A stretch of 64,000 nt of DNA. Source: an uncultured bacterium. Lineage in GTDB: Bacteria > Poribacteria > WGA-4E > WGA-3G. This document shows, piece after piece, positions 2,549 through 58,610 of this stretch (positions within the stretch are counted from its first letter, which is position 1; the number at the start of each line of letters is the position of its first letter). Below the pieces are notes generated by a model that made no database searches, was not told the DNA's origin, and saw only the letters and a program-made list of their open reading frames with translations. The translations under genes were made by a program, and so were the position numbers. The stretch is from positions 39,003 to 103,002 of the forward strand of contig CAZZBB010000060.1 of the NCBI GenBank assembly GCA_964652195.1, read 5' to 3'.

Positions 2549-3211
2549 TTATTCAATTAATCCGAACTTTTGGCATTCCTGACGCAACTTCTGTTCTACT
2601 TTTCTTGCCAATTGACTGATTCGTGGTTGGCTAAGTTTTAACAACTTAGCAATATCACAATTTGACATATCCTCACGAATGCAGGTGAAAACCTGTTGTT
2701 CACGGTGAGCCAGTGTTTCAATGAGTTGAGGTAGGACTTTCTCAAAATTGGCGACGGATATCTCCCAAATGAGTCTATCCACAAAACATTCGGCATCAGC
2801 ATCAGGTGTATTTAAAATAAGGTTTATATCTCTGTCGTCTTCGGCATTTAGTTCCCCGTTGGTATATGAATCCATATAGGATTCGGGGCATTCCCGTGCA
2901 TAGCGTTTGAGTTCTTTGTGCTTTGCATTTATCAAATTCCCGCAAATCTTTGGTCGGATGAAAGTTCCAAAACTGGCACCACTTTTATGTGTAGGATTGA
3001 ACGCAGGACCTTTTTCTATGAGCGTTACGGAAGCAATTTGTATCAAATCGTCTCGAAACGCAGGGCGCGATGGTGGCTCAAGCGCGATACAACCTGCACA
3101 CCGACACAAATCGGGTAAAAGACCGGTAATTGTCGCGTTGTCCGGTTGGAATTCACCCTTATGTGAGTAAGATGGACATTTTACCCCTGTCAATTGACAT
3201 TTCAATTTCAT
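2549..3211 (-). CDS. sigma-70/ECF-family sigma factor-like protein with N-terminal Cys-rich (Zn-ribbon-like) extension
   Basis: Region-2-like DDLIQIASVTLIEKGPAFNP...SFGTFIRPKI and region-4 HTH REQQVFTCIREDMSNCDIAKLLKLSQPRISQLARK. N-terminal CxxxxxC...CRCAGC. Confidence 0.55.
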   Translation of the reverse strand: MKLKCQLTGVKCPSYSHKGEFQPDNATITGLLPDLCRCAGCIALEPPSRPAFRDDLIQIASVTLIEKGPAFNPTHKSGASFGTFIRPKICGNLINAKHKELKRYARECPESYMDSYTNGELNAEDDRDINLILNTPDADAECFVDRLIWEISVANFEKVLPQLIETLAHREQQVFTCIREDMSNCDIAKLLKLSQPRISQLARKVEQKLRQECQKFGLIE

Positions 3212-3312: not shown

Positions 3313-3459
3313 ATTTTCTGCATTTTTTAGGATAATAGATAAGGTTTCTACCATCAAAGAGGTTTCTGCCTTAAAGTTTTTTAATCAGTTTAATATCTGC
3401 TCCTTGTTAAAGAGGTATTGAAAGTATCACAAATTGAATTTTATTTAGGATACCTTATA

Positions 3460-3571
3460 ATACCATTTCTATTAATTTCTGTCCAATTAGCAATTGCTAT
3501 AAATGAAGTGTTGTGTGGCACAAACTAAAAGTTTATGCTACAAAAGAGATACTATATATCAGAAATGGTAT
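3460..3571. mobile_element. MITE-like element (~112 bp) with terminal inverted repeats ataccatttct / agaaatggtat, copy a
   Basis: The terminal inverted repeats and the core gtagcataaacttttagtttgtgc are shared with the elements at 14716-14829 and 24974-25088. Confidence 0.5.
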
Positions 3572-3661
3572 AAAACAGGTGTTTTTCAACTTTAAATTAA
3601 TGGCCATTTAGTGGTATTAGGTTTTGCTGAAGAAACATAACTATCGGAAACCGAATGTTCA

Positions 3662-4909
3662 TTATGGAATAGGCCACCCCGGTGTCGGTTCAGTGCGGAG
3701 CGCTTCTATTTCGTATAACTCTTCAACTTTTATCTCACGACCAAGCTTCGCTGAAAGGAGTGCACCACTCATAATCTCAGTCACTTTCAGACCTACATCC
3801 CCATTGCTGATAGGTTGTTCGTCGTTACTGCAGGAATTAATGAAATCTCGGAACTTATCTGGGAAGTGTTTATCTGGAAGTTCTAAGGGTGTTTCAACGA
3901 GATTCCCTTGATAACGTCTACGGTTGCCTTTGTCATCGGTTTCCCACTCACCTTTTTCAAGGAAGAGTTTATCGTTGCTGAAAGATCCTTTAGACCCGAA
4001 GATAAATATGCCTTGCGGTTGTCCTGCCATATTGCATGACCATCCGTGTTCGTAGGTAAATGACATGCCATTTGTAAATCGGACAAACACGGAAACGAAT
4101 TCCTCAACGTCGTTGATCTCTTCTCCAGTGTATTCAGGAGGCATACCCCGATATGCAATGCCGCTGATAGTTTCGGGTTGTGGTGAACCGAGTAAGTAGA
4201 TAGACCGATTGATGTCATATACACCTGTGTCGTATATTGTACCTCCACCGCTGTAAGCTGAATTGAGAAACCATTTGCCGAATCCGAACATATCTACATT
4301 AGGTCTGCCTCGGAGCCGGTAACTGGTCAACCTACCATAGTGAACATCACCGATTTTCCCGGATGTAACGTGCTCTCGGATAGCATAACTTGTTGGATTA
4401 AGACATGTGCCGCCACTCTGATAAGCAATTTTTACCCCTGCTTTGTCACAGGCATCCCGCATGTTTCTCGCCTCTGTTGCAGTTCGCGCCATCGGTTTTT
4501 CACAAAAGACATGCTTTCCAGCATTTGCTGCTGCGACAGTTGGAGCTTCGTGTACAAAAGGTGGTGTAGCCAGACTTACAGCGTCTAAGTCGCATTCCTT
4601 CAACATTTCATTGAAATCACTATATATTTTGACCCCATCTTTTGCATATTGTTCCCAGCATGCAGCGTTTTCATTGAACTGTTCCCGTGCTTCAGCGGAA
4701 TCAGCTTTTTCTGCTTCCTCCTTAGCACTATTTGCGCGTCCTTCTGCTCCTGAAAGCGTTTCTGCTGCTCTTCTCTGTGCGTTTGCGTCAACTGTATCGC
4801 AAACTGCCACAATCTGTGCTTGTTGCGGATGTGCAAGATACCCGTTGACATGTGAACCGGCAATCATACCGCACCCGATTAGTCCTACTTTAATCCGTTT
4901 TGACATCAT
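3662..4909 (-). CDS. Gfo/Idh/MocA family NAD(P)-dependent oxidoreductase
   Basis: N-terminal Rossmann motif VGLIGCGMIAGSHV. 415 aa. Family-typical C-terminal domain. Confidence 0.85.
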   Translation of the reverse strand: MMSKRIKVGLIGCGMIAGSHVNGYLAHPQQAQIVAVCDTVDANAQRRAAETLSGAEGRANSAKEEAEKADSAEAREQFNENAACWEQYAKDGVKIYSDFNEMLKECDLDAVSLATPPFVHEAPTVAAANAGKHVFCEKPMARTATEARNMRDACDKAGVKIAYQSGGTCLNPTSYAIREHVTSGKIGDVHYGRLTSYRLRGRPNVDMFGFGKWFLNSAYSGGGTIYDTGVYDINRSIYLLGSPQPETISGIAYRGMPPEYTGEEINDVEEFVSVFVRFTNGMSFTYEHGWSCNMAGQPQGIFIFGSKGSFSNDKLFLEKGEWETDDKGNRRRYQGNLVETPLELPDKHFPDKFRDFINSCSNDEQPISNGDVGLKVTEIMSGALLSAKLGREIKVEELYEIEALRTEPTPGWPIP

Positions 4910-5753: not shown

Positions 5754-5822
5754 TTGTAGGAGGGAATTCTAATTCCCGATTATCAAACTGGTTTGATCGC
5801 GATTCGGAAATCGCTCCTACAA
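5754..5822. repeat. ~70 bp palindromic repeat element, copy 2 of 4
   Basis: ttgtaggagggaattctaattcccgat ... gatcgcgattcggaaatcgctcctacaag. Confidence 0.6.
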
Positions 5823-6151
5823 GTAATGTGTATAATTACGTCAATATTTCACCATAAGTAGAATTTCTTCTCATATCATCTAAATATTCTATATCAATTT
5901 ACTGGAAGTGTGTGCTAAAAAAGTAGCTCTTGGTAATGTTAGTGGTTAGATATAGATATTTTCTTCAATTAATTTTCTTTTTTTATAAAAAAATGTATGA
6001 AATCAGCATTTGGTTAGATATAAACAAAAACAAGTAGTTGACTTTCTTTACAACATGATACCATTTCTAAATATATTTGTGTAACTTCTTGATAATTCCA
6101 CACAGGTTTGATATTATAAAACTCCGAATATTTTGATATAGGTAATAGAGA

Positions 6152-12498: not shown

Positions 12499-12537
12499 AT
12501 TAGTGCTGTGTCAAGTATTTTCTGATGGCACTAAAAA

Positions 12538-12607
12538 GTCGGGAATTGGAGTTCCCTTCTACAATACAAACATTCTGTAGGAGCGATCTCCGAATCGCGA
12601 CCTACAA
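12538..12607. repeat. ~70 bp palindromic repeat element, copy 3 of 4
   Basis: gtcgggaattggagttcccttctacaa ... tgtaggagcgatctccgaatcgcgac. Track ORFs 12525..12755 and 12559..12774 here are judged spurious. Confidence 0.6.
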
Positions 12608-12842
12608 AATAGAACTTGACCAAGCATTAGTCCCAACCTATGCAATAAAGGGTATTCAAGGGTTGTCAACAAAAGAGAAGGTATATCCAGCAGCTTGTCA
12701 TATAGGGAGCTGGTTTTCATTTTACTCTGACAGAAAGCAGGACATTCTGGTATAATTGAGATTAATACTGTCATAGACTTGTGATGGCAATGCTACGCGT
12801 AGTTTAGCAATCCCATAACACAGAACCGAAGGAGCAAGCCAA

Positions 12843-14474
12843 TTGCCAAAAAAGAACACTTCAACAGATCCCGTCCAAGCAACACTCCCTTTCCCAACTC
12901 AAGACGATGAACAATTAGATATATCCACATTGGAAACATGGTTATTAGATGCCGCAAACACAATCCGCGGTGCAAGTGATGCCCCAAAATTCAAAGATTT
13001 CATCCTACCGCTCATTTTCTACAAACGCCTCTCCGATGTATTCGATGATGAATTTTCTAAACAGATAGCAGAATTTGGCGATGAAGAATCAGCCAGAGAA
13101 ATCATTGCCGTAGACCACGAGGACGCACTAAAAGCAGGACGTAACCCAATCGTTCGGTTTTATATCCCGCAGCAGTATAGTTGGGAGAAACTCCGCAAAC
13201 AACCTGCTGATGGACATCTGGGGGAGTTTGTCACCGAGGCGATGCGTGAAGTTGCACGGCTAAATCCACGGTTGGAAGGTGTACTTAATGTGCAAGATTT
13301 TAACGAAACACAAAGCGGACAACGCACACTTGATGAAGATAGGTTAGAAGCACTCATTGAGGTGCTAAGTCGACATCGGCTTGGACTGCAGAACACGGAA
13401 CCGGACATCCTCGGTCGTGCTTATGAGTATCTGTTACGGAAATTCGCGGAAGGACAAGGACAAAGTGCTGGTGAGTTCTACACACCGAAAGAGGTCGGTT
13501 GGTTGATGGCGCGTCTCATCAACCCTGAACCTTACACAAAGATCTACGATCCAGCATGCGGGTCTGGTGGACTACTTATCAAAGGACGATTGCTATTTGA
13601 GCAGACACATCCTGATGAAAAGAGCCAAGCACCGAAAATCTACGGACAGGAACTAACACCGACAACCTACGCTATGGCAAAGATGAACGCCTTCCTACAC
13701 GATTTCATCGGTGCGGACATTCAGATAGGTGATACTTTCCGCAACCCCCGATTTCTTGCAAATAACGCTACGTTACAACGATTTGACTACGTGATGGCAA
13801 ATCCGATGTGGAATCAGAAGGAATATGATGACGACTTTTATGAAAACGATAGTTGGCAACGATTTACTTCTGGCAAGCCACCGAGTTCATCTGCGGATTG
13901 GGCATGGGTGCAGCATATGTACGCTTCTTTGAAAGATAACGGTCGTGCAGCAATTGTGCTGGATACAGGAGCAGTTTCGCGCGGTTCCGGGAGTAAAAAC
14001 ACAAATCGCGAAAGAGACATCCGCAAAAAATTCGTTGAAGAAGATCTAATTGAAGGTGTGATACTCCTACCCGAAAACCTGTTTTACAACACAACTGCCC
14101 CGGGAATTATCTTGCTGTTGAACCGCAGTAAACCCGAAGAACGTAAAGGTGAAATCTTACTCGTTAATCTCACGAACTATTTTGAGACTCAGAAACCGAA
14201 AAATGTCTTAACGGACGATGGGATTGATGCCGCAACTGAAGTTTATAACGCATGGGAATCGCGTAAGAAATTTAGCCGTGTGATCACACTGGAAGATGCA
14301 CAGAAAACAGATTACAACCTGAGTCCGTCGCAGTTTGTGGATGTGGGAGACACCATTGAACACCGACCTATGAACGACATTCTTGCAGACCTAACAGAAG
14401 CGCGCCTCACCCGAGAAAAAGCGGATAATGAATTGGAAGCGGTGTTGGCACAACTTGGATTGAATGGAACATAG
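12843..14474 (+). CDS. hsdM: type I restriction-modification system methyltransferase subunit HsdM
   Basis: N6-adenine MTase architecture. N-terminal HsdM-N region (LETWLLDAANTIRG). Catalytic NPMW motif (a variant of NPPF/Y). AdoMet-binding DPACGSGG. Confidence 0.9.
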   Translation: MPKKNTSTDPVQATLPFPTQDDEQLDISTLETWLLDAANTIRGASDAPKFKDFILPLIFYKRLSDVFDDEFSKQIAEFGDEESAREIIAVDHEDALKAGRNPIVRFYIPQQYSWEKLRKQPADGHLGEFVTEAMREVARLNPRLEGVLNVQDFNETQSGQRTLDEDRLEALIEVLSRHRLGLQNTEPDILGRAYEYLLRKFAEGQGQSAGEFYTPKEVGWLMARLINPEPYTKIYDPACGSGGLLIKGRLLFEQTHPDEKSQAPKIYGQELTPTTYAMAKMNAFLHDFIGADIQIGDTFRNPRFLANNATLQRFDYVMANPMWNQKEYDDDFYENDSWQRFTSGKPPSSSADWAWVQHMYASLKDNGRAAIVLDTGAVSRGSGSKNTNRERDIRKKFVEEDLIEGVILLPENLFYNTTAPGIILLLNRSKPEERKGEILLVNLTNYFETQKPKNVLTDDGIDAATEVYNAWESRKKFSRVITLEDAQKTDYNLSPSQFVDVGDTIEHRPMNDILADLTEARLTREKADNELEAVLAQLGLNGT

Positions 14475-14715
14475 ATAACCCAACCTATATGAGAGGCTCA
14501 GGGTTATTTATAGTAAAGTTAATAATTAATGAGGTATTTCGACGTTGACGAAGACCACCCAACGTAGTGGCGAGCCCCCCCGCCCGTTGTGGAGTGTTTT
14601 ATTAATTCCAAAGTTTACTATAGGTTGGACAGTTTTAAGAATTAAACAAAGACTTGAAAGTCTATTCTTTATGTTTAGACACATCCCTCACTGCTGGTGT
14701 TTGGGATTTAATGTT

Positions 14716-14829
14716 ATACCATTTCTGATATATCACAACTCTCTTTTGTAGCATAAACTTTTAGTTTGTGCTACACAACACTTCATCTATAGTAATTGCT
14801 AATGGAACAAAATTAATAGGAATGGTATT
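14716..14829. mobile_element. MITE-like element, copy b (inverted relative to copy a)
   Basis: Terminal inverted repeats ataccatttctgat ... aggaatggtat. The core matches the reverse complement of 3488-3548. Confidence 0.5.
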
Positions 14830-14932
14830 AGATAGCATTCACCAGACTGTTGTTTGATAAGAGCTTATTAATTGATGAGTTAAGCCACAACCTGAAACTT
14901 GCCGAAAAAGATTACTATTGACTAAATCGGCA

Positions 14933-15008
14933 GCACCAGCGGTGCGGAAGGTGTGTAGAAACGTAAATGCCATAAGTTTCCGAGCACCAGCGGTGCGAAA
15001 GGTGTATG
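14933..15008. promoter_or_regulatory. two tandem palindromic boxes gcaccagcggtgcgRaaggtgt upstream of hsdS
   Basis: Direct repeat at 14933-14956 and 14983-15008. Each contains the palindrome GCACC-AGC-GGTGC. Confidence 0.3.
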
Positions 15009-15222
15009 TATACAGTTGTTAAAGAAATTACGAAAATTGTCCAAACTATAGTATAGTTTTTCAGACGCAAAACATCAATGGGAGCGGTTCTTAAGGATCT
15101 TATTTTTATACACAAAGCATCGGATGAAAAGGAATTTCTTGACCAAATTGAATTTATTCCGCTATAATGATGGACGCAAATTATGAGTCCTAACATTTGC
15201 ATGGGAACAAAGAAAGGTTGTT

Positions 15223-16458
15223 ATGGATGATATGAATATGCCAGAACATTGGGAAGTGATACCTTTAGAAAACGCGGTCAATATCTTTGATAAAAAGAGA
15301 ATTCCACTCAATGAAAAACAAAGGCAAAAAAAGCAAGGAAATTACCCTTACTGTGGAGCAAATGCAATCGTAGATCATGTAAATGATTATTTATTTGATG
15401 GTGAATATATTTTGTTAGCGGAGGATGGAGGGTATTGGGGTTCTTTAGAAAATTCTGCTTATTTGATGAGAGGAAAATTTTGGGTTAATAATCATGCCCA
15501 TGTTTTACAAGCTAAACAAGGTCTATCAGATAATTACTTTTTGATGTGTCAACTAAATTATCTTGATATTACACCATTTATCAGCGGCACAACTCGCGGA
15601 AAGTTGAATCAGGGAATGATGAAGCGGGTCCCATTAGCGCTTCCACCACTCCCCGAACAACGCGCCATCGCCCACATCTTACATACAATCCAAGAAGCAA
15701 AATTCACCCGAAAACGCGAAATTGAATTAGAACGCGAACGAAAAGCAGCATTGATGGATTATCTCTTTACACACGGCACAAAGGGTGAACTCCGCAAGCA
15801 GACAGCAATCGGTGAGATTCCTGAGAGTTGGAAAATAGTGAAGTTGGGAGAAATTGCAGACATTGTTTATGGGGTTCAAGCAGCTGTAGCAAAACTTCTT
15901 GATGAATCAATAGGTCTTCCAATTTTGACAAACATAAACATTACATTAGAAGGAACTCTGGATTTAACAAAACTACGCTACTATGAATTACCGGAAAATA
16001 AAAGAGAAAAGTTGATCTTGCGAAAGGGTGACCTGCTGTTTAACTGGAGAAGTGGAAGTCAACATCATGTAGGAAAAACTGCTTTATTTGATAAAGATGA
16101 AGAATATACTTTCTCTTCGTTTATTCTGCGTTTTCGTCTTTCTGATCAAATAGACAATATCTTTGCTCTCAACTATTTTCATTATCTAAGAACAAAAAGG
16201 TTCTTTGAAAAGAAACGTTCTCAATCGTCAATCAATTCGGTCATGAATGCAAGTCGAAGTGCGGACATTCCTATGTTAGTTCCATCAATTAATGAACAAT
16301 TAAAAATTGGTGATACGCTGCAAAAATTAAATGTGAAAATAGCAGCTCTTGAACGAGAAGTTGAACTCATAGACGAACTCTTCCACGCCATGCTCGAAGA
16401 ACTCATGACAGGGCAGCGATCTGCTGTGCCACTGATTGATACCAAATTGCTGAACTAA
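15223..16458 (+). CDS. hsdS: type I restriction-modification system specificity subunit HsdS (two target-recognition domains)
   Basis: Conserved HsdS central and C-terminal conserved regions (LPPLPEQRAIAHIL... and ...EREVELIDELFHAMLEELMTGQ). 411 aa. Confidence 0.9.
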   Translation: MDDMNMPEHWEVIPLENAVNIFDKKRIPLNEKQRQKKQGNYPYCGANAIVDHVNDYLFDGEYILLAEDGGYWGSLENSAYLMRGKFWVNNHAHVLQAKQGLSDNYFLMCQLNYLDITPFISGTTRGKLNQGMMKRVPLALPPLPEQRAIAHILHTIQEAKFTRKREIELERERKAALMDYLFTHGTKGELRKQTAIGEIPESWKIVKLGEIADIVYGVQAAVAKLLDESIGLPILTNINITLEGTLDLTKLRYYELPENKREKLILRKGDLLFNWRSGSQHHVGKTALFDKDEEYTFSSFILRFRLSDQIDNIFALNYFHYLRTKRFFEKKRSQSSINSVMNASRSADIPMLVPSINEQLKIGDTLQKLNVKIAALEREVELIDELFHAMLEELMTGQRSAVPLIDTKLLN

Positions 16459-21912: not shown

Positions 21913-22003
21913 AAGATCACCTTACTTCACCTAATCCAAAATCCATTATATACAATAACCAAGGTTATTTATAGTGAACATTGAAAATAATAACACAAAA
22001 TCC

Positions 22004-22072
22004 CTGTAGGAGCGATCTCCGAATCGCGACTTAACTCAGTGATAGTCGGGAATCGGAGTTCCCTTCTACATC
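22004..22072. repeat. ~70 bp palindromic repeat element, copy 4 of 4
   Basis: ctgtaggagcgatctccgaatcgcgac-ttaactcagtgata-gtcgggaatcggagttcccttctaca. The arms are inverted relative to copy 3. Confidence 0.6.
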
Positions 22073-22150
22073 TCAAAATGTTCCATTAATTCAAAAGTTT
22101 ACTATAAATAATCCTGTACAAAAAAGTAATCAATTGTATGGAGGAAGATA

Positions 22151-24952: not shown

Positions 24953-24973
24953 TAGATACGATAGTTTGAAGTA

Positions 24974-25088
24974 ATACCATTTCTGATTATTAAAGTCTCT
25001 TAACTGGTAGCATAAACTTCCAGTTTGTGCAGTATTTCAAGACATGCTTAACAACTGTTCACGGGATAAACATTTTTAGAAATGGTAT
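24974..25088. mobile_element. MITE-like element, copy c
   Basis: Terminal inverted repeats ataccatttctgat ... agaaatggtat. Core ggtagcataaacttccagtttgtgc. Confidence 0.45.
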
Positions 25089-25099
25089 AAGGATTAGAT

Positions 25100-25924
25100 A
25101 TGACACCAAAACAACGCTACTTATTTGATGTAACCGGGTATCTTCATTTGGAGAATGTAATCACAGGAGATGCATTGGCTGAAGCATCTGTAGCGGTTGA
25201 TAGATATATTACAACACCACCTGATGAATTACCTCCTGGATTTGAACAGAAGGGATTACATCAACACGGATTCGCTTTTGATAAATCCCTTGAATGTCTA
25301 ACGATGCATTCTGCACTTTGGCCGATAATTAAGGAACTCACAGATAACCAACCTCGGTTTGGAAGAGGGTCACTTAAACACGACAAACATGATTTATGGC
25401 AGGCAGGAGAAAACGCACATGTAAATCCGGGTGGACTGCATTGCGCACGTGATGATTATGGATGGTATAGCACACGTTACGAGGCAAACAACGGACATAT
25501 ATACTGCGATAACTTCGTCTGTTTTCCATATTTTACGGATGTGTATCCGGGAGATGGGGGACTAATTGTAATTCCCGGTTCACATAAAAGTGAGTTCGAT
25601 AGACCGAAGCAGCTTTTAACACTTGATGAAGCAGATGGTATTGATCCTATCGATGATCCTGTATTTGTAAATATCACCCCGAAGGCAGGAGATATTGTGA
25701 TTATTTCTGAACTGCTTACACATGGTGTATTGCGATGGAAACCGAAAAATAGAGACAGAAGGTTTCTTGTATTTCGATATTTCCCACAATTCTCTGGAAC
25801 ACATAACCTACCACAACCAATACTGGATCGATTATCACCAGAGACGTTGGAATTAGTTGCATCTGAACCGTATGGTCACATTAAAGAAATCGTGAAGCAG
25901 GATCAGGTTACACTAACAGTTTAG
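25100..25924 (+). CDS. phytanoyl-CoA dioxygenase (PhyH)-like protein
   Basis: 274 aa. N-terminal YLFDVTGYLHLENV and GSHK...H motifs. Confidence 0.65.
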   Translation: MTPKQRYLFDVTGYLHLENVITGDALAEASVAVDRYITTPPDELPPGFEQKGLHQHGFAFDKSLECLTMHSALWPIIKELTDNQPRFGRGSLKHDKHDLWQAGENAHVNPGGLHCARDDYGWYSTRYEANNGHIYCDNFVCFPYFTDVYPGDGGLIVIPGSHKSEFDRPKQLLTLDEADGIDPIDDPVFVNITPKAGDIVIISELLTHGVLRWKPKNRDRRFLVFRYFPQFSGTHNLPQPILDRLSPETLELVASEPYGHIKEIVKQDQVTLTV

Positions 25925-45387: not shown

Positions 45388-45428
45388 CGAAGGGTAGCCC
45401 TGCGGCTAAAGCGTAGGGCTACCCTTCG
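45388..45428 (+). terminator. strong hairpin after the XRE gene
   Basis: cgaagggtagccctgcg-gctaaag-cgtagggctacccttcg. Confidence 0.45.
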
Positions 45429-58123: not shown

Positions 58124-58325
58124 TTTATCTCTCCAATTATTATATTATTGTTGTTTAGCAATATTAAATAATAATCTTACGATTTTCGATATGTGTCAAA
58201 CCCGTAGGGGCGGGGTTTCCCCGCCCGTTATTGACGCATAATGTGAATATTTAATATTGAAACTTGCTTTAGATGAAGATTAAGAAAATATTTCGGTAAT
58301 TCTAATTTTCCCAAACCCGGTAGGC

Positions 58326-58380
58326 GGGGAATGACTAAATGTCATTCATACCCGGGGAATGACTAAATGTCATTCATACC
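58326..58380. promoter_or_regulatory. two tandem 27 bp boxes, each containing the palindrome GAATGAC-TAAAT-GTCATTC, ~200 bp upstream of dnaK
   Basis: ggggaatgactaaatgtcattcatacc x2, followed by (ttgattcc)x3.5 at 58381-58410. Confidence 0.35.
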
Positions 58381-58610
58381 GTTGATTCCTTGATTCCTTG
58401 ATTCCTTGATTTGGATTTTTTCAAAATTGCCGATTTTAAAAATTAATCTTCATGAAAACAACTGATAAACTGATATAAGTAATAGCAATATCTGTGCCAA
58501 CCCTACATGTTGATATAGTGGTAACTTATTTTTCTACAAGTCAATTTGGCAGTTAGTCTATACGTTTGAATCTGATGTTGTCTGCCAATTTGGCATACAT
58601 TATAATGAGG

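Follow-up and report, generated by a model that had tools for sequence, protein, structure and literature searches.

The window analysed here, a stretch of 64,000 nucleotides from an uncultured poribacterium with a G+C content of about 40%, contains three copies of a repeat of roughly 110 bp, and this raises the question whether these copies are mobile DNA or a box that the host has repeated for its usefulness. The preliminary description had taken them for a MITE-like element with terminal inverted repeats (TIRs) and an internal hairpin core, present at 3460–3571, 14716–14829 and 24974–25088 in both orientations, always between genes and without a transposase in the window. Our alignment of the three copies agrees with this picture, the coordinates being good to 1–2 nt. 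Copy 1 spans 3461–3570 on the minus strand (110 bp), copy 2 spans 14717–14827 (111 bp) and copy 3 spans 24975–25087 (113 bp), both on the plus strand and hence opposite in orientation to copy 1. Each has the ends TACCATTTCT...AGAAATGGTA, which also bound about 60 copies elsewhere, and we refer to the framework formed by these ends as shell A. Identity between copies 1 and 2 is 90%, and copy 3, a member of another subfamily, reaches 70–72% with either of them; it has a diverged right arm, and conservation is confined to the core, the terminal repeats and a TCTCTT block, which accords with the diverged interior and intact termini first ascribed to it. Brought into one orientation, the aligned copies have in common ATACCATTTCTGAT at one end, AGAAATGGTAT at the other, the TCTCTT block and the 24-nt core. 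Allowing at most one mismatch, the window has 10 matches to the motif ATACCATTTCT, where 2.25 ± 1.28 would be expected (0/100 shuffles); six of them are accounted for by the two ends of the three copies. For the 24-nt core, the count is three and the expectation none.

All three copies are intergenic and without an ORF. Copy 1 has the start of a sigma70-r4/GerE gene (2549–3211, minus strand) on one side and the stop of a GFO/IDH/MocA gene (3662–4909, minus strand) on the other, copy 2 lies in the 748-bp gap (14475–15222) between hsdM (12843–14474) and hsdS (15223–16458), and copy 3 lies between two PhyH genes, its end 12 nt ahead of the ATG at 25100. The hsdM–hsdS spacer is in itself unusually long for a type I R-M operon and holds, besides copy 2, an 11/12 promoter-like match at 15139–15168, just upstream of hsdS. 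Pfam scans (1e-5 or 1e-8) of the 47 window ORFs of at least 100 aa, nine of which gave no Pfam match, did not reveal a transposase.

We employed a scan for exact matches to the core (AGCATAAACTTNNAGTTTGTGC) across one genome per prokaryotic species to ascertain how widely the repeat occurs. At least 116 loci with at least 280 exact copies were obtained, none of which is overlapped by the window, and among the matches listed 115 of the 116 core loci belong to Candidatus Poribacteria MAGs, from about 35 assemblies; the core was not matched in viral contigs. The MITE copies are dispersed, non-coding and multi-copy in these roughly 35 MAGs, and those of the window are 86–94% identical to copies of other poribacterial species (e.g. 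MSPOR6) that lie in unrelated flanks, so that the repeat by itself makes a poribacterial origin of the window very probable. The sole core match outside the Poribacteria among the matches listed, locus L105 (Blastocatellia MAG JAYVRW010000198.1, ~5983–6093), has two hairpins in inverted orientation, 66 nt apart, for which horizontal transfer or a binning error is possible. Our literature search found no paper on poribacterial MITEs or REPs.

Perfect 3-bp direct repeats flank each of the window copies: TAA at 3458–3460 and 3571–3573 around copy 1, TTA at 14714–14716 and 14828–14830 around copy 2, and TAA at 24972–24974 and 25088–25090 around copy 3. For a survey of such flanks, left termini of the genome loci and the window were paired with right termini at most 3 kb away, and three bases were read on each side. 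This yielded 22 TAA/TAA, 17 TTA/TTA and one TCA/TCA pair as well as eight discordant TWA pairs, hence 39 of 47 TWA-flanked copies are concordant (binomial p=2.8e-6, the null being a free middle base). Seven of seven further metagenome copies, obtained by a scan anchored on the terminus and not on the core, are likewise concordant. When joined-flank queries were BLASTed against all loci, a filled site and its paralogous empty site were recovered within one genome. The filled site (L111) reads ..TCCTTAGTC TTA [TACC...GGTA] TTA CATG.., and the empty site (L067), the flanks of which are 91% identical, reads ..TCCTTAGTC TTA CAGG.., so that the element consists of TACC...GGTA together with the 3 bp (TTA) that are duplicated upon insertion. 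A search via identical or 74–85% identical PhyH proteins gave no empty site for the three insertions of the window itself. The closest orthologue, at 85% aa identity, lies in a rearranged locus, and the other contig carrying an identical PhyH protein (L117) ends inside copy 3, an example of the assembly breaks for which the MITE accounts.

The three repeats are thus very probably MITE copies, that is, mobile non-autonomous cut-and-paste transposons with a TWA target. The termini, which are uniform within genomes and throughout the phylum, the 3-bp target-site duplication (TSD), the precise filled/empty pair and the occurrence at unrelated loci in both orientations bear out the MITE proposed at first and refute its stated alternative, a gene-associated regulatory box. 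A plain MITE would be of little importance beyond annotation, apart from being a marker of how plastic the genome of an uncultivated sponge symbiont has recently been.

The core of each copy folds into a hairpin of 24 nt, termed REP-1 here, which is a GTAG-tagged, REP-like sequence. It is located at 3518–3541 on the minus strand in copy 1 (GTAGCATAAACTTTTAGTTTGTGC), at 14748–14771 on the plus strand in copy 2 and at 25007–25030 on the plus strand in copy 3, the latter with the loop variant TCC (GTAGCATAAACTTCCAGTTTGTGC). REP-1 consists of a 5' GTAG tag followed by a 9-bp stem with a conserved T.G position and a 3-nt loop. The tag is unpaired in copies 1 and 3 and in the tandem arrays described below, and only in some copies such as copy 2 does it pair with a 3' CTAC, which results in a 13-bp stem. 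Among 65 distinct variants, 94.2% of the stem cells are paired, compared with 16–44% in slid controls, and double-sided changes of the stem number 21 versus 3.6 ± 1.7 in shuffles (0/500). The compensatory stems include AAACT/AGTTT, AGACT/AGTCT, AATCT/AGATT, AGGCT/AGCCT and GCGT..GCGC. Each of the four GTAG columns is conserved to at least 90%, and the T.G position is mostly kept (U-G in 42/65 and C-G in 15/65 variants). The 24-nt hairpin is nearly invariant in some 35 poribacterial species; since the loci were selected by the exact core, its conservation in this set is partly an ascertainment effect. In the loci listed, ORFs contain no REP-1 site in sense orientation. Thirteen sites fall within crudely called ORFs in antisense orientation and are probably artefacts across arrays. 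Doublets of REP-1 in inverted orientation are found at other loci only (e.g. L005, L085, L029 and L105), and the window copies, with one REP each, do not contain the inverted REP pair by which a REPIN is recognised.

The hairpin is a separate GTAG-tagged REP-like module and not just part of the MITE, for it is found in at least three TIR shells that differ in their termini as well as on its own. For the classification of its surroundings, 60–90 nt were read on each side of 130 REP-1 sites. About 61 of these sites lie in shell A, about 28 in a shell B (TATAGTGAA..TTTACTATA, also with a second hairpin) and about seven in a shell C (TAGGACTTACGC..GCGTAAGTCCTA), and 35 sites, some of which are inverted doublets, lie outside these shells. 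Shell A for its part holds at least five other GTAG-hairpin types as cargo, and all cargos begin with GTAG: GTAGGTGCGGTTTCCTAACCGCACC (L025, L161), GTAGGTGCGACC..GGTCGCACCTAC (L031), GTAGTCCCCC..GGGGGA (L042, L072) and long CGTAGGTCGGG.. hairpins (L080, L082, L178) were encountered, and in a shell-anchored scan only about one in eight copies contains the hairpin of the window. When we looked for a shell A without cargo, from which the limits of a REP insertion could be read, we obtained no more than a 67-bp deletion derivative (L137) and, at L017, an element of 82 bp whose arms are unrelated. REP-1 cargo and TIR shell are therefore independent of each other, and the internal hairpin core of the preliminary description, although present in all copies, is not exclusive to the MITE, being common to other TIR families and amplified in tandem.

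This amplification is apparent in shells A and B, where hairpins separated by linkers of 6–9 nt, identical within one array, follow each other head-to-tail with a period of about 30–33 bp (e.g. L021 5951–6389 and L049 2380–2977, and the shell B arrays in L077). Between intact TIRs with matching TSDs we observed 1, 2, 3, 5, 6, 8, 11 and at least 15 units, and the largest count at a single locus is 17 exact core matches. The element is composed of a TIR shell and, as its cargo, the 24-nt GTAG-tagged hairpin, and the hairpin unit with its spacer of about 7 nt has been amplified head-to-tail inside the shells, most likely by slippage or unequal exchange. While the base kind is an ordinary MITE, this modular shell-and-cargo design is moderately novel. 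It offers a concrete case in which the spread and persistence of REPs, be it with a RAYT or without one, can be studied, and lets one ask whether REPs prefer MITE palindromes as landing sites. In long-read metagenomes of sponges, the length-variable arrays can serve directly as strain markers.

We wondered if the repeat might instead be a regulatory or RNA element of the host, the copies of which are kept for their usefulness and do not stem from mobility. Such an element could be an sRNA, a protein-binding box or a hairpin for mRNA stabilisation or processing. The copies fold more stably than shuffled sequences (z −4 to −4.9 on the core-sense strand), and the T.G position pairs only on the sense strand, as RNA. 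All three hairpins of the window are in sense with co-directional flanking genes, and across the loci 48 hairpins are in sense versus 26 in antisense orientation (p=0.014), a modest bias from sites that are not all independent. Such a bias fits transcribed REPs, and a strand-biased insertion could also yield it. One promoter-like match (TGGACA-17-TATTAT, 3485–3457, minus strand) reads out of copy 1 and faces the sigma-like gene; yet promoter-like matches in the elements are overall at the level of shuffles, no terminator-like sites were found in them, and an Rfam scan of the window at the gathering score gave 0 matches. Moreover, the neighbouring genes are unrelated, the TSDs and the empty site testify to insertion events, and the number of hairpins varies from one to at least 15 in otherwise identical shells. 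A regulatory origin of the repeat is hence unlikely in our view. Any regulatory function could be secondary (exaptation) and would as such be compatible with mobility.

For the MITE, a transposase encoded elsewhere would recognise the TIRs of about 10–16 bp (TACCATTTCT[A/G]AT...) and excise the element, which would then be reinserted at T-W-A by staggered cuts 3 nt apart, the repair of which would create the TAA or TTA duplication. Footprints at the DNA level show the excision and TWA reinsertion that such an enzyme would carry out. A TWA duplication is made by PIF/Harbinger and Tourist elements, and 3-bp duplications are also made by IS30- or IS3-type enzymes. The IS1031 group of the IS5 family has a three-nucleotide target (PMC2516522). 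Judged from the TSD only, the enzyme would be a DDE transposase with an IS5/IS1031/Harbinger-like target type. With Tourist-like and IS5-family MITEs (IS1031/ISL2/IS427 group) the poribacterial element shares the size class of about 100–150 bp, the lack of coding capacity, the TIRs of 10–16 bp and the 3-bp T-N/W-A duplication, but unlike for these MITEs, no IS5- or Harbinger-type transposase with the poribacterial termini was found. To our knowledge, the TACC... termini resemble no IS5-family end.

TIR pairs 0.06–3 kb apart, orphan ends and multi-copy ORF clusters were examined in the window and the at least 116 genome loci to identify a partner IS. None qualified, the only elements obtained being a non-coding one of 1.4 kb with similar ends (L096) and an IS630 element of a different MITE family. 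A metagenome scan with TWATACCATTTCTAATTGA gave 62 loci, many of which are chance matches in unrelated low-G+C contigs. In one metagenome, Ga0187810, 16 contigs end about 119 nt inside one identical sequence, a pattern typical of assemblies interrupted by a multi-copy IS. This element, known from its 224-nt left end only, begins with TACCATTTCTAATTGA.. or TACCATTTCTAATTGATATTAGG.. directly after TWA, and its 16-nt terminus is identical to that of the MITE. An HTH-like ORF (MARPRLKLTMDEATRAEVERRYRKTRDSRDKERLLALRLANDGQHSFDQIAEEVGRARS..) starts 46 nt into it; the 59-aa N-terminal fragment matches HTH_23 below threshold only and has no relatives in the protein database. The host contigs are without poribacterial repeats. 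We regard the Ga0187810 element as a candidate partner and no more. Of the cognate IS that had been suggested as a check, a left end with the same terminus was thus found in one metagenome, whereas a full-length autonomous element with these termini was not recovered from the window, the at least 116 genome loci or the metagenome scan. The far end of another locus from the same metagenome (L142, last ~120 nt) encodes an IS5-type transposase C-terminus (..FRKVTTRWDYHIANFLAFVQLACIVILMRHL and a stop); its end sequence differs from that of the candidate partner and shows no link to it.

The possible resemblance of the N-terminal ORF of the candidate partner to an IS630-type HTH, together with the fact that these genomes contain transposases of the IS630 family as well as MITEs derived from them (family E, TIR GATGAAGATTAAG, with a TA duplication at L045 and a parent IS at L091), would speak for a Stowaway-like MITE of the IS630/Tc1-mariner type. 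IS630-type elements duplicate TA and not a 3-bp T-W-A. To be reconciled with a TA duplication, the window copies would need an extra base on different ends even though copies 2 and 3 have the same orientation, since copy 2 is flanked by TTA and copy 3 by TAA while the core of both is on the plus strand; an asymmetric end combined with a TA duplication is therefore excluded. Furthermore, the empty site holds a single TTA, and the ORF fragment has no similarity to the IS630 protein of L091. We thus consider a TA-duplicating element of this type very unlikely.

Since the hairpin resembles known REPs, the whole unit of about 110 bp could also be regarded as REPIN-like and be moved by a RAYT (Y1/HUH) transposase via a single-stranded intermediate and not by a DDE enzyme. 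E. coli TnpA-REP requires both GTAG and a stem mismatch (PMC3333891), and REP-1 is like the RAYT substrates (Ton-Hoang 2012, PMC3333891) in possessing both determinants, the 5' GTAG and a non-Watson-Crick stem position. The inverted doublets of the core at L005, L085, L029 and L105 would also be in keeping with a RAYT, as would the fact that at least one Y1 transposase is encoded in Poribacteria. We analysed a sample of 1.43 Mb, about 0.5% of the genomes concerned, for RAYTs using tblastn with E. coli RayT (a query 99% identical to the database RayT), an HMM of 120 enterobacterial RAYTs and the ORFs flanked by cores, and found no RAYT beside REP-1 in this sample. The sole Y1 transposase encountered (L013 463–939, PF01797 1.4e-26, on a poribacterial chromosome) is IS200-like and scores above the cut-off of the IS200 model and below that of the RAYT model. 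It is flanked (260–1050) by a 19-bp inverted repeat (CAGTCCCGTAGGGTTTATT) and several palindromes of the CCCGTAGGG type, not by REP-1, and this locus is possibly a TIRtron or REPtron for another repeat class. What argues against movement of the whole unit by a RAYT is that HUH transposition proceeds without a target duplication, yet the 3-bp TSD is evident statistically and directly; that the insertion is limited by the TIRs and not by the hairpin, the same TIRs moving other cargos; and that the window copies contain one REP and no inverted pair. Together with the lack of a RAYT beside REP-1 in the 1.43 Mb, this renders a REPIN-like unit highly improbable. That the hairpin arrays or copies are degenerate CRISPR-like arrays or remnants has next to no probability, for although 24-nt palindromic repeats are regularly spaced in some genomes, their 'spacers' are 6–9 nt long and identical within an array where unique spacers of about 26–72 nt are required, the arrays are enclosed by TSD-flanked MITE termini, cas genes were not seen and the window copies are single-unit.

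With the unit as a whole read as a MITE, the hairpin inside it may still be linked to a RAYT-type Y1 (HUH) transposase, as its substrate or remnant, and would then have nested into the MITE and now hitch-hike on it; alternatively, it may be a stem-loop of RNA or single-stranded DNA that is tolerated or selected in transcripts. According to the sections consulted of the survey by Di Nocera et al. (2013, PMC3733652), REPs that have a GTAG tag and G.T pairs belong to a superfamily with stems of 6–13 bp, in which head-to-tail dimers or runs are rare; Poribacteria are not named among the organisms in that part. Measured against the families described there, REP-1 has the unpaired 5' GTAG, the 9-bp stem, the 3-nt loop and the G.T position, and it likewise falls into compensatory subfamilies of high copy number that are mostly extragenic and occur as singles, inverted dimers and clusters. 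It departs from the same families, as far as that part of the survey covers them, in its AT-rich stem, its location mostly in TIR shells with TSDs, its long head-to-tail arrays and in that no associated RAYT was found in 1.43 Mb. PMC3733652 also describes REP dimers of Anabaena nested in TATAGGA..TCCTATA palindromes. As in the poribacterial elements, the centre of a longer, palindromic and TIR-like repeat is regularly occupied by REP units, and the termini of shells B and D (TATAGTGAA..TTTACTATA) are similar to that of the Anabaena palindrome; in contrast to the poribacterial case, the section concerned mentions no TSDs, no multiple shells per REP and no multiple REPs per shell.

Our analysis would thus allow for a layered mobility, an account that we put forward tentatively and hold to be possible rather than probable. 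REPs, as Y1/RAYT-type substrates, would insert preferentially in the single-stranded centre of extruded MITE palindromes and become an interchangeable cargo in DDE-mobilised shells. These shells would spread the REPs with TSDs, possibly without a dedicated RAYT, and the cargo would amplify into VNTR-like head-to-tail arrays. If true, this would be an undescribed route of REP dissemination, with combinatorial shell-by-cargo repeats conserved across a candidate phylum.

Modular repeats have been characterized in other bacteria. The pneumococcal BOX element (boxA-boxB(n)-boxC) consists of pairing terminal modules and a hairpin-forming internal module in variable tandem number, and the poribacterial element is similarly modular, with terminal parts and a tandem internal hairpin module. 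Sequence and host are unrelated, and the internal module of BOX is not a GTAG REP and is not common to several TIR families. Small dispersed repeats (SDRs) nested in MITEs are mentioned for cyanobacteria in PMC3116915. Elhai et al. (2008) reportedly described a hairpin unit of about 21–27 nt within several unrelated repeat families; REP-1 is like these SDRs in its nesting within MITEs, while sequences and phylum differ.

Other small elements are present in the window and in the genome loci. A small TIR element at window positions 21960–22110 (tTATAGTGAAC...GTTTACTATAa) contains a different GTAG hairpin as an inverted pair (GTAGGAGCGATCTCCGAATCGCGAC / GTCGGGAATCGGAGTTCCCTTCTAC), is REPIN-like and matches L076 4034–4103. 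The same hairpins are arranged tail-to-tail, opposite to their arrangement at 21960–22110, at 12510–12626 just upstream of hsdM, a region that matches L101 3097–3213. A head-to-head pair of GTAG hairpins (GTAGGAGGGAATTCTAATTCCC ... GCGATTCGGAAATCGCTCCTAC) is found at 5756–5822, and more GTAG-tagged hairpins lie near 2306 and 5071 on the minus strand and near 45394 and 58204 on the plus strand. The variety of these hairpins indicates that several REP classes exist in the window. At L062 (4086–4517), a shell-A MITE with a TCA/TCA duplication harbors a third element nested in it, with CAGGGTTATTTAGTTTT inverted repeats as its boundaries; small elements are thus commonly nested in these genomes. 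A 1.4-kb element at L096 (6116–7558) has inverted ends of about 85 bp that start with CTATACCAATTCTCC and resemble shell A; it is without a transposase ORF and itself nested in another palindrome. Finally, MITE family E is represented in the window at 58268–58400 (TIR GATGAAGATTAAGAAAATATTTCGGTAATT, internal GGGGAATGAC..GTCATTC hairpins). One of its copies (L045 2825–3016) is nested in a shell-A MITE and shows a TA duplication, and its apparent parent (L091 4870–7350) is a two-ORF IS of the IS630 family (NF033545, DDE_3) that lies inside a REP array.
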